Of a stretch of 64,000 nucleotides of DNA, positions 25,233 through 28,204 are shown piece after piece (position 1 is the first letter of the stretch; each line of letters begins with the position of its first letter). The stretch is taken from positions 1 to 64,000 of the IMG/VR virus record IMGVR_UViG_3300032257_000006, one strand, 5' to 3'. Below the pieces are notes generated by a model. That model worked only from the letters and a program-made list of their open reading frames with translations. It was not told the origin of the DNA and ran no database searches. Position numbers and translations under genes: made by a program. Source of the stretch: a virus. Taxonomy: Duplodnaviria; Caudoviricetes.

Positions 25233-25751
25233 TTAATCAGGCTCACCTACAAAGTTAGCTAGAGCCAGTTCTAATGTTTCATACCTGCATTTTTGTGGTT
25301 GACGATCAAACGAACCACCGTAACTATAAGGCCAAGCGATATGGCCTTCCCAACTTAGCAGAGCCAGTACATTGTTTGGTGAATATGAAATGGTTAAGTT
25401 CTTGTCTTCTGTATTTTTTAAGCAGACGTAATAGTCTTTGTGGTGAGTTACTGTCCATTCACCTGCGGCCCCAGTTAACTTGTCACCTACTTTAAGTGCG
25501 TCTGAGTCTTCAGGTTCCATCGGTTCAATATCTTTCATCCAGCAACAATAAAAGCACGTAGTATCACCAGACCATGTATGACCTTCTTTCAGTCTGAACA
25601 TCTTACGTCCAGATTCGTGCTTTGGTTTTTCTTTCACTACTCTAGAATTCATACCTTTATTAAAAAATTCTTCGTAGCCTACATAAACACCAACACCGTG
25701 CGGTAATTTATAAGGCCGGCCCAGTTCAAGGTCAGTATATTTTATTGTCAT
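25233..25751 (-). CDS. Hypothetical protein
   Basis: Start moved to ATG 25751 after GGAG and palindrome copy 10. Confidence 0.7.
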   Translation of the reverse strand: MTIKYTDLELGRPYKLPHGVGVYVGYEEFFNKGMNSRVVKEKPKHESGRKMFRLKEGHTWSGDTTCFYCCWMKDIEPMEPEDSDALKVGDKLTGAAGEWTVTHHKDYYVCLKNTEDKNLTISYSPNNVLALLSWEGHIAWPYSYGGSFDRQPQKCRYETLELALANFVGEPD

Positions 25752-25766
25752 GATCGCTCCTATACT

Positions 25767-25782
25767 TTCGGACAAGTCCTAA
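25767..25782. repeat. Palindrome copy 10
   Basis: TTCGGACAAGTCCTAA. Confidence 0.9.
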
Positions 25783-26625: not shown

Positions 26626-26814
26626 TTACATCCACATAACATCTGCATAAGCATTTCTATTAGCCGATACAGCATGTGAAAAGATTCGTTGTTTACAATG
26701 GTTAATAAGTTTAGTTACTTTATCTTGGTCACACTCTGGATAATCAAAAATAGTTGACCGCAACTTGCGCACCAATCGTTCAAGTTCTTTAGTTCTTTCA
26801 GGTGTTAAATTCAT
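26626..26814 (-). CDS. Hypothetical protein
   Basis: 62-aa ORF. Confidence 0.65.
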   Translation of the reverse strand: MNLTPERTKELERLVRKLRSTIFDYPECDQDKVTKLINHCKQRIFSHAVSANRNAYADVMWM

Positions 26815-26822
26815 AAGGTCTC

Positions 26823-27485
26823 CAGTGTAATAAGTGAATCTGTTTTAAATGTAAACAAACAGATTTAGTTATCACACTGAAAGTAAGTACTAGCTGCCAG
26901 TGTACCTAACATCATTTGTAATGCGCTGAGCTTAGCTCCTTTGCGTTGTTACAAGTGTTAGCCAGTGACTGACCCTTACTTTCAATGTAGTCACTCCTCA
27001 GACCTTTTCGGTCTAACCATAAATTACCTGCGTTGCATTATCATGTCTTACGTGCTGCACATTAAGCCAATGGGTTCCAAGTCAGTTAGTTTGCTCAGGT
27101 GTTAGTCCTATCTAGAGCCGTTGTATTATTTGAACAGCTCTCGGACATGTCCGAAAAAACTCTAACCAGTTACCGCTTATATACTCAGGGTCTTACAGTT
27201 GGTTACGAATCGCGGGTAGCAATTCATATATAGTAACCAATCAAGCCAGCACTGCTTGCAACGATCACACTCTGTGATCCGTACAGTTCTCTACAGTAAT
27301 TTGTCGAGTGAGGTCTCGGCTTGTCAGGCCGAGCACCATTTAATCTAGTTGTTAATTAGCACGTCTCTAGGACTTGCACCGGCTTGGGGCCGCTGCCGCG
27401 TTTACTCATCACCTGTACAATCTGTGATGCCTTTAGTAAGGGTCAGTTAACATATACGTTAACAACCTGGCCCTTAGTGAAAGCT
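26823..27485 (-). ncRNA. Large hairpin-dense non-coding region, candidate structured ncRNA(s)
   Basis: No ORF of 60 aa or more; at least 8 hairpins, several with minus-strand G-U pairs; 13-bp perfect long-range complement 26968-26980 / 27435-27447. Confidence 0.5.
27140..27155. repeat. Palindrome copy 12
   Basis: CTCGGACATGTCCGAA. Confidence 0.9.
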
Positions 27486-27545
27486 TCACTCAAATACAAT
27501 GCTGATGACCATCAAGGCCAGTTCAACCCAAATTAGCTCTAACAT
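27486..27545 (-). CDS. 19-aa hydrophobic peptide
   Basis: MLELIWVELALMVISIVFE behind GGAG, after palindrome copy 13. Confidence 0.45.
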   Translation of the reverse strand: MLELIWVELALMVISIVFE

Positions 27546-27576
27546 GTCGTTCTCCATAAATGCTTCTAAAATATCT

Positions 27577-27592
27577 CTCGGACAAGTCCGAA
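27577..27592. repeat. Palindrome copy 13
   Basis: CTCGGACAAGTCCGAA. Confidence 0.9.
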
Positions 27593-27642
27593 AGTTGCGT
27601 TATATCAATTAGCTATTACTAATTGAGGTAGATCAAAAAATA

Positions 27643-27831
27643 TTACAGCCTTATTAGTCCCATCAATAACAGTGTCATAATTACCGCTATGGACAGTACT
27701 AATAATAGTCGCTCTCCTAAGTATCTGAGTGAGCCACCTAAAGTACCATATTTAATACCTTCAACTATCCACTCAACTATTTTATAAATTGCAACAACTG
27801 CCAGTATAAATCCTAGTCCAGTCAAAAACAT
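27643..27831 (-). CDS. Small two-TM membrane protein
   Basis: 62 aa, two hydrophobic helices. Confidence 0.6.
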   Translation of the reverse strand: MFLTGLGFILAVVAIYKIVEWIVEGIKYGTLGGSLRYLGERLLLVLSIAVIMTLLLMGLIRL

Positions 27832-27838
27832 ATAATTC

Positions 27839-27928
27839 CTACCCTATCCACCAAACCACTGCGCTTGATACAACCAGTACTACTGTAAGCGCCACTATCA
27901 GCCTTGCTATTATCTGATCTTTATTCAT
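27839..27928 (-). CDS. 29-aa single-TM peptide
   Basis: MNKDQIIARLIVALTVVLVVSSAVVWWIG behind AAGGAGG. Confidence 0.6.
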   Translation of the reverse strand: MNKDQIIARLIVALTVVLVVSSAVVWWIG

Positions 27929-27940
27929 GACGCGGCCTCC

Positions 27941-28096
27941 TTAAGGTCTAAAGTAAGCCATTACACAAAGTACAGCTACTGCACCTAATATAATGGTCAT
28001 GTCTATTCTAAATGCCCTACGTATGCGCTGATCTTCTAGCTGTGCATCGTAGTAGCGGTAGTCTTTCTTAATCATCTGGCCGTTACGGTTAGTCAT
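27941..28096 (-). CDS. 51-aa C-terminal-TM protein, first gene after promoter P-left1
   Basis: MTNRNGQMIKKDYRYYDAQLEDQRIRRAFRIDMTIILGAVAVLCVMAYFRP behind GAGG. Confidence 0.6.
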   Translation of the reverse strand: MTNRNGQMIKKDYRYYDAQLEDQRIRRAFRIDMTIILGAVAVLCVMAYFRP

Positions 28097-28175: not shown

Positions 28176-28204
28176 ATTATACACCTATTATTAGGATATG
28201 TCAA
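28176..28204 (-). promoter_or_regulatory. Consensus sigma70 promoter (P-left1) driving the early arm
   Basis: TTGACA-N17-TATAAT, a perfect match. Confidence 0.9.

Follow-up and report, generated by a model that had tools for sequence, protein, structure and literature searches.

Genome Context of the Core

The stretch of DNA analyzed here (the window) comprises the first 64 kb (64,000 nucleotides [nt]) of the 78,952-b record IMGVR_UViG_3300032257_000006, the genome of a tailed phage (G000). The element in question is a gene-free stretch of 666 nt at window positions 26819–27484 (the core), which comparison with one related phage suggests to be a large folded RNA. Minus-strand genes run from position 1 to ~28.1 kb and plus-strand structural genes from ~31 kb on; Pfam and PHROGs identify a Pol I-type polymerase (including a 5′–3′ exonuclease), an SNF2 helicase, a large primase, two methylases, a deoxynucleoside monophosphate kinase, RadC, terminase, portal, and capsid. 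The core lies in the minus-strand early operon, ~0.7 kb downstream of a perfect sigma-70 promoter that faces leftward, toward this operon. Behind the promoter follow three tiny hydrophobic open reading frames (ORFs) of 51, 29, and 62 amino acids (aa), a junction copy of a palindrome that recurs in the early arm, a 23-aa micro-ORF, and then the core. The cumulative GC skew turns at 27–28 kb, where transcription diverges, and the GC content of the region (0.38–0.41) is near the genome mean. The features of the locus are as follows.

28176–28204, minus strand: sigma-70 promoter of perfect consensus, TTGACA-17-TATAAT (12/12 match)
27576–27593: copy of the early-arm palindrome at the junction preceding the 23-aa micro-ORF (sequence match)
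27486–27557, minus strand: hydrophobic micro-ORF of 23 aa, outside the RNA (ORF list)
26819–27484, minus strand: putative structured RNA core of 666 nt, conserved at 68% identity with G001 L007:1462–2108, flanks unrelated

Extent and Coding Potential of the Core

The sole relative lineage in our comparisons is the phage G001 (IMGVR_UViG_3300032212_000003; 75,632 b). Its genome is syntenic with that of G000, with 65–75% nucleotide identity in conserved genes and a primase that is 82% identical. The G001 counterpart of the core is free of ORFs; blastn aligns it at 68% identity with window positions 26864–27379, and it is alignable over 26819–27484, where the identity is 68% over 543 columns. By comparison, BLASTP finds nothing to align between the two phages in the ORFs directly flanking the core, either upstream or downstream. 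Since the core is kept while the flanking ORFs are unrelated, the element is conserved as a unit and its neighbors are exchanged: Comparison of the two genomes indicates a core that moves as a unit between unrelated neighbor genes.

The core exactly fills the space that separates the stop codon of a tiny ORF upstream from the ribosome-binding site of the gene that follows. In both phages, it starts within 2–5 nt of this stop codon and runs up to a conserved UGGAGA, 5–9 nt ahead of the next start codon; sequence conservation stops exactly at GGAGA, and the next ATG in G000 lies at 26814. An earlier note on this DNA had treated the interval 26823–27640 as one RNA. This holds for the conserved core, whereas the ~155 nt at 27486–27640 are separate and contain the junction palindrome, a hairpin found only in G000 (27605–27626), and the 23-aa micro-ORF.

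The core is noncoding. The ORF list has no minus-strand ORF of at least 30 aa within the stretch, short plus-strand ORFs of 30–50 aa exist, and every frame in both G000 and G001 contains 10–21 stops. Substitutions in the core are spread over the three codon positions as 79/74/71, that is, without codon periodicity, compared with controls of 159/79/476 (primase) and 82/40/237 (methylase), and 13 of the 15 internal indels are not multiples of three. The view of the earlier note that the stretch is noncoding rather than a run of micro-ORFs is thus upheld by the sequence evidence from two genomes, through the lack of periodicity, the nontriplet indels, and the stops in all frames.

Conservation of the Fold

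The ten hairpins listed in the earlier note all exist in G000, and eight are kept in G001; those at 26963–26994 and 27605–27626 occur in G000 only. The density of hairpins also exceeds chance expectation: The minus-strand minimum free energy (MFE) of 26815–27500 is −212.4 kcal/mol, clearly better than the −177.8 ± 5.5 kcal/mol of 100 dinucleotide-preserving shuffles (z = −6.3). A separate run with 20 shuffles gave z = −4.75 for G000, and the homologous stretch of G001 has a minus-strand z of −4.6.

A consensus fold of the two minus-strand sequences, calculated with RNAalifold, contains 140 shared pairs at −127.8 kcal/mol; 28 of these pairs are changed on both sides, 16 show one-sided, wobble-compatible changes, and none is broken. 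Column-shuffled alignments (n = 100) reach −62.9 ± 6.4 kcal/mol, which places the real alignment at z ~ −10, and contain 13.5 ± 3.6 compensatory pairs compared with the observed 28 (z ~ +4). Shifting the 3′ partners by 1–3 columns reduces the compensatory pairs to between 0 and 2. Three ungapped helices of at least 6 bp carry at least three compensatory pairs each (P14, 5/7; P7, 3/7; P8, 3/6), against a mean of 0.15 such helices per shuffle; three were reached in 0 of 200 shuffles.

A noncircular test, in which the MFE fold of a single genome was scored on the other genome, found 20 compensatory pairs against 10.3 ± 2.9, and 57 broken pairs against 77 ± 5, in controls with substitutions shuffled among like columns. 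It should be noted that the separate MFE folds of G000 and G001 have only 47 pairs in common, all in local hairpins, so that the long-range helices rest on the consensus fold and on covariation. The hairpins P2, P10, and P10a, misaligned by MAFFT, fold in both genomes with different sequences and add ~10 compensated pairs by hand. Local realignment brings the fold to 154 pairs, 39 of them compensatory, at −150.9 kcal/mol; this version serves as a model only and is excluded from the statistics.

Throughout the alignment, invariant blocks of 6–18 nt (e.g., 18 nt at 27296–27313 and 14 nt at both 27101–27114 and 26984–26997) alternate with variable segments that fold as hairpins in both genomes. 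Long invariant blocks between variable helices are the usual signature of functional RNA. Taken together, the comparative evidence shows the core to be conserved as a predicted structure, and the three compensatory pairs in each of the long-range helices P6 and P8 favor one large fold over a string of small RNAs.

Architecture of the Core

The predicted fold consists of ~20 helices, arranged as four 5′ hairpins, a central domain of ~320 nt that four stacked helices close by pairing segments 200–320 nt apart, a 3′ domain of 105 nt, and a long terminal hairpin. Helix coordinates are window positions, and all helices are given on the minus strand, in 5′ to 3′ order of the RNA.

27429–27484, minus strand: P1/P1a, 5′ hairpin; alifold helices 1–2, with 2 compensatory and 3 one-sided changes
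27407–27429, minus strand: P2 hairpin, CAUCAC/GUGAUG (G001, CAUCGGC/GCUGAUG); from the separate folds, outside the alifold count owing to MAFFT misalignment
27376–27396, minus strand: P3 hairpin (alifold), then the invariant block GUGCAAGUCC at 27370–27379
Between P3 and P4, minus strand: A/U-rich linker with invariant GUGCAAGUCC and AAAUGG (alignment)
27312–27337, minus strand: P4 hairpin with a 7-nt loop; CGGC/GCCG changed to CGGU/ACCG, basal U-A to C-G
26991–27311, minus strand: central domain, closed by long-range P5, P6, P8, and P9 (alifold helices 8–10, 12, and 13)
27306–27311 with 26991–26996, minus strand: P5, invariant
27283–27297 with 27016–27031, minus strand: P6, 3 compensatory pairs
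27263–27279, minus strand: P7 hairpin, GAUCACA/UGUGAUC (G001, GGCCGCG/CGUGGCC); 3 compensatory and 1 wobble change in 7 pairs
27257–27262 with 27032–27037, minus strand: P8, 3 compensatory pairs
27247–27252 with 27052–27057, minus strand: P9, invariant
27199–27240, minus strand: P10/P10a, two-tier hairpin with a conserved YACCC loop; both stems wholly different in G001, ~9 compensatory pairs by hand
27139–27156: copy of the early-arm palindrome, TTTCGGACATGTCC, inside the core; invariant in G001
27105–27146, minus strand: P12 hairpin, formed between the invariant block UAGAUAGGACUAAC and the 3′ half of the palindrome, with the invariant AAAUAAUA in its loop; helices 17–18, 3 compensatory
27000–27014, minus strand: small AGACC-GAAAA-GGUCU hairpin within the central domain; stem kept in G001, loop changed
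26879–26983, minus strand: 3′ domain, P14–P18 (helices 21–25); compensatory pairs 5/7 in P14, 3 in P16, and 1 in P15
26822–26880, minus strand: P19, long terminal hairpin (helices 26–27), whose base pairs the UGG of the conserved UGGAGA

P1a has two compensatory pairs plus two G-C to G-U changes, and P1 is longer in G000 owing to an inner GUUAAC hairpin. At the other end, the UGGAGA at the base of P19 serves as the Shine–Dalgarno sequence of the next gene (ATG at 26814).

The earlier note had given particular weight to a perfect 13-nt inverted repeat, read as the basis of a switch or a large tertiary fold.

26968–26980: arm 1 of the exact 13-nt inverted repeat; absent as a complement in G001
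27435–27447: arm 2 of the exact 13-nt inverted repeat; absent as a complement in G001

The repeat itself is exact (100% complementary) in G000. The proposed switch finds no backing, as the pairing has no counterpart in G001 and local helices covary instead: The duplex has −22.8 kcal/mol in G000 compared with −5.9 kcal/mol for the homologous G001 segments. Arm 2 contains the 3′ strand of P1a (27437–27446), arm 1 is covered by the 5′ strands of P14 (26975–26983) and P15 (26969–26973), and all three of these helices covary. Because G001 lacks the duplex and the arms belong to covarying local helices, we read the repeat as a lineage-specific coincidence. In G000 the 5′ strand of P14/P15 resembles the 5′ strand of P1a, and the 13-nt pairing could compete with P1 in this phage alone; it is not maintained by evolution.

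The palindrome copied inside the core has the form TTTCGGAC-WW-GTCCGAAA and sits just before AUAUUUUAGGAGAAUU-ATG junctions. It occurs at 17 sites in the window, between 3901 and 30292, and again at 70153 and 75179 of the full record; G001 has ~20 sites, with a center of 2 nt in some and 3 nt in others (GGACATTGTCC and GGACCGTGTCC). Since the center may be 2 or 3 nt in G001, a rigid dimeric DNA operator fits less well than an RNA hairpin. The position adjoining GGAC/GTCC varies without compensation (C.U, A.G, C.C). Besides one full palindrome, the core holds two invariant half-site-like blocks; these have two nested pairing options, between themselves or with the palindrome.

Two further observations concern P12. 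Its loop is a candidate for a tertiary pairing with the junction after GGAGUGACUACAUU (~27133–27129 with 26985–26981; alignment columns 377–381 and 527–531), as UUCAA/UUGAA in G000 and CAAAA/UUUUG in G001, with three of the five pairs compensatory; given the search space, this may be chance. On the minus strand at 27125–27153, a spacing of 17 nt (18 in G001) separates the palindrome half CGGACA from the invariant AAUAAU of the P12 loop, and the two score 9/12 as a promoter, so a second transcription start inside the core is possible.

The Functional Strand

The minus strand is favored by the consensus energy (−127.8 kcal/mol, against −105.1 kcal/mol for the plus strand). Among the pairs stacked on the strand-neutral core of the fold, ten exist on the minus strand only (12 G-U cells) and six on the plus strand only, nine cells of which would be A-C on the minus strand. 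All neighboring genes, for 28 kb, are on the minus strand, and the 12/12 promoter faces the core. These data point, with moderate confidence, to the minus strand as the functional one.

Comparison with Known RNA Families

A covariance-model search of the whole window with Rfam 15, which includes ROOL, GOLLD, OLE, HEARO, and raiA, returned no match at the gathering score. With relaxed filters and E-values up to 10, G000 and G001 gave only microRNA and small nucleolar RNA noise that differed between the genomes, and ARAGORN found no tRNA or transfer-messenger RNA (tmRNA) genes in the window. By eye, the core has no conserved self-complementary loop, and its count of CsrA-type GGA motifs, likewise judged by eye only, is about the expected number.

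In its general character the core resembles the large ornate RNAs ROOL, GOLLD, and OLE, which measure ~580, 800, and 600 nt, respectively (PMC12286853; PMC9723947), and which form homo-oligomeric RNA-only assemblies as seen by cryo-electron microscopy (cryo-EM) (PMC12286853). It shares their size class, many helices, conserved unpaired blocks, noncoding nature, and a function that cannot be deduced from sequence, and GOLLD and ROOL likewise occur in phage or prophage DNA. It differs in matching none of their Rfam models, in lying between ORFs of an early operon, and in being found in two lineages; ROOL, GOLLD, and OLE are separate genes, whereas the core is embedded in a polycistronic operon. 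Like the ornate RNAs as a kind, the core is longer than 500 nt and noncoding, with covarying helices and conserved unpaired blocks of 12–18 nt. The large structured noncoding RNA of the ROOL/GOLLD size class proposed in the earlier note is accordingly supported by the 666 nt, the ~20 helices, and the compensatory changes; membership of either family is not, given the negative covariance-model search. We therefore place the core, as a predicted RNA, in a family of its own without a catalogued member, within the kind of the large ornate RNAs.

The stable RNAs of phage T4 (species 1 and 2, from its tRNA cluster) offer another comparison: They are tRNA-like molecules of 120–140 nt, processed from a polycistronic early transcript. 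Like these, the core is structured and noncoding and would be cotranscribed early with other genes, but at five times their size and with a domain closed by long-range helices.

Distribution of the Core

Searches for further lineages led back to G001 throughout. Among 50,697 phage records, none matched the region by blastn. Searching for related loci through the neighbor proteins returned only a spurious 16-residue match in an unrelated phage of 73.7 kb (G002), which has only terminase in common with G000. Four rounds of pattern scans for the invariant blocks, covering viral, metagenome, and genome contigs, recovered only G001 or its source contig, and all other matches were chance by blastn. 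Protein searches with two conserved neighbors likewise found only G001 and a near-identical ENA contig (75,583 b, 99.6% aa identity). Among sequencing runs, one DNA run matches, from a microbial-mat metagenome that is probably the source sample, and no RNA run is listed. Among cultured phages, G000 is closest to Vibrio phage SHOU24 and similar phages, with a primase identity of only 31%; the first 24 kb of SHOU24, examined for this purpose, has no gene-free gap comparable to the core.

A published survey of structured RNAs in IMG/VR required at least three loci and reported motifs of 29–151 nt (PMC10690425). By these criteria, a core of 666 nt would have escaped capture.

Interpretation of the Core

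We put at about even the chance that the core is an autonomous, highly structured RNA of an undescribed family, with a function of its own at the RNA level. In favor of this reading are the large fold, its extended invariant blocks without pairing, and its independence of the neighbor genes; the RNA may act in trans or only inside the mRNA. The early polycistronic transcript would include the core RNA, whose long invariant unpaired stretches and invariant palindrome-type element would serve, early in infection, to scaffold or decoy a partner, either protein or RNA. By analogy, its mode of action could be of the kind proposed for OLE, ROOL, and GOLLD (PMC12286853; PMC9723947).

The core sits in the first DNA expressed by the phage, behind a perfect host-type promoter, and its conservation while the surrounding protein genes were swapped argues for a job in host take-over that is not done by proteins. 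Conserved structured RNAs of more than 500 nt are rare, and every known class, among them rRNA, RNase P, introns, OLE, ROOL, and GOLLD, has proved to be of mechanistic importance or to hold structural surprises. With 666 nt, the core is short enough to be transcribed in vitro and then probed or imaged by cryo-EM, and its promoter should be active in Escherichia coli.

Several points weigh against an RNA acting in its own right. With two lineages only, each helix rests on few substitutions and the family is thinly sampled, and the long-range helices P5 and P9 are invariant, hence without support from covariation. The plus strand also folds well (z = −5.3 in G000 and −5.8 in G001), and this nearly equal quality is why the call for the minus strand is only moderate. 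No promoter or terminator of the core's own was found. Finally, the core abuts a stop codon and supplies the next ribosome-binding site, and a purely cis role fits this arrangement too.

A more specific version of the autonomous RNA, which we regard as improbable though worth stating, has the core cut from the immediate-early transcript, either as a free-standing scaffold or decoy with palindrome-type GGAC/GUCC helices or as a multimer built of RNA only, as with ROOL and GOLLD. In the first case, its one full palindrome and two invariant half-site-like blocks would capture a reader of the ~17 palindrome hairpins of the early arm; by way of speculation, capture of such a palindrome-reading factor would time the early gene program. 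If true, either form would mean that a lytic-type phage carries a large functional RNA of a new class.

The strongest rival to an autonomous RNA, possible yet on balance unlikely, is that the core is only a cis-acting intercistronic spacer of the early mRNA, with a role in mRNA stability or processing, as an exonuclease block, in uncoupling the translation of the tiny upstream ORFs from that of the downstream genes, or in gating the ribosome-binding site via the terminal hairpin. A spacer would explain why the core is without a promoter or terminator of its own, why in both phages it starts 2–5 nt from a stop codon and ends at UGGAGA 5–9 nt before a start codon, and why the UGG of the ribosome-binding site is taken up in pairing at the foot of P19. 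The core also takes the place of the stop–palindrome–ribosome-binding site junction seen between other early genes. However, 666 nt with ~20 helices, long-range closure, and invariant blocks of 14–18 nt exceed what stability or gating would need, and the downstream gene differs between the phages while the RNA is conserved.

A tie to a replication origin seems to us distinctly improbable. The core would then be a preprimer or R-loop RNA, in the manner of ColE1 RNA II or the promoter-dependent origins of T4 and T7, or it would be a DNA origin. It adjoins the strongest promoter, the divergence of transcription, and the GC-skew turn at 27–28 kb, the phage encodes a Pol I-type polymerase with 5′–3′ exonuclease and a large primase, and ColE1 RNA II, at 555 nt, is near the core in size. 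Yet the region has neither an AT-rich unwinding element nor an iteron array (GC 0.38–0.41), the skew turn coincides with the change in gene orientation and needs no origin, and the compensatory changes in ~20 helices, together with the G-U wobbles, indicate a folded RNA and not a DNA site.

We give very little credence to a cis antitermination leader (nut/boxB–boxA, put-like, or rrn-like), the alternative offered in the earlier note, which comparison with G001 does not support. As in lambda nut, G000 has a 5-bp stem with a GAAAA pentaloop (27000–27014) downstream of a strong early promoter, and a weak boxA-like 12-mer with two mismatches is found in the core at 27349–27360, not adjacent to the boxB-like hairpin. 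Unlike in lambda, the GAAAA loop is not conserved (AGACC-GAAAA-GGUCU in G000; AGAC-UCAG-GUCU, with a 4-bp stem, in G001), and the hairpin is one small helix in a 666-nt fold. There is no significant boxA either: Scanning the 64 kb with at most two mismatches found 5 boxA (GCUCUUUAACAA-like) sites compared with 8.5 expected, for a consensus that may not be the host's. Neither genome matches an Rfam antiterminator family, known antiterminator RNAs are ten times smaller, and three or four ORFs separate the promoter from the core.

Equally hard to credit is that the models missed a self-splicing intron, some other known ribozyme, or a divergent tRNA-, tmRNA-, or RNase P-type RNA. The size would suit ORF-less group I or II introns, and the core contains GAGUGACUACA, which is loosely similar to the group I R element. 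Against this, Rfam gave no such match at E up to 10 in either genome, ARAGORN found nothing, and the flanks are complete, unrelated small ORFs and not two halves of one gene.

A run of micro-ORFs or decayed genes with incidental hairpins, which the plus-strand ORFs of 30–50 aa and the real-looking 23-aa ORF at 27486–27557 might suggest, has a negligible chance of being correct, being refuted, within the limits of two genomes, by the absence of codon periodicity, the nontriplet indels, and the 10–21 stops per frame, and opposed by the strong conservation of structure.

Neighboring Genes and Further Observations

The 23-aa micro-ORF has a weak relative in G001, where a 35-aa ORF occupies the corresponding place and its start is identical in 8 of 21 positions (E = 0.009, for a single comparison). 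Together with the ORFs of 51, 29, and 62 aa it forms a group of four tiny hydrophobic ORFs (27643–28096 and 27486–27557, minus strand) that are the first coding sequence after the early promoter; they look like single-pass membrane peptides. The promoter-proximal region has 81% identity with G001, making it the best-conserved noncoding DNA nearby, and the promoter hints at a host whose promoters are E. coli-like and whose ribosome-binding sites are of the AGGAG type.

Only one protein gene within ~1 kb is common to both phages (25233–25775, minus strand), with 74% identity over half its length. Look-ups in Pfam, PHROG, and Atlas gave no lead for its product, which is a possible partner of the RNA. 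G001 has terminal repeats, and its copy of the RNA lies ~3.3 kb from the right end of the record; the RNA region of this phage may be among the first DNA to enter the cell.

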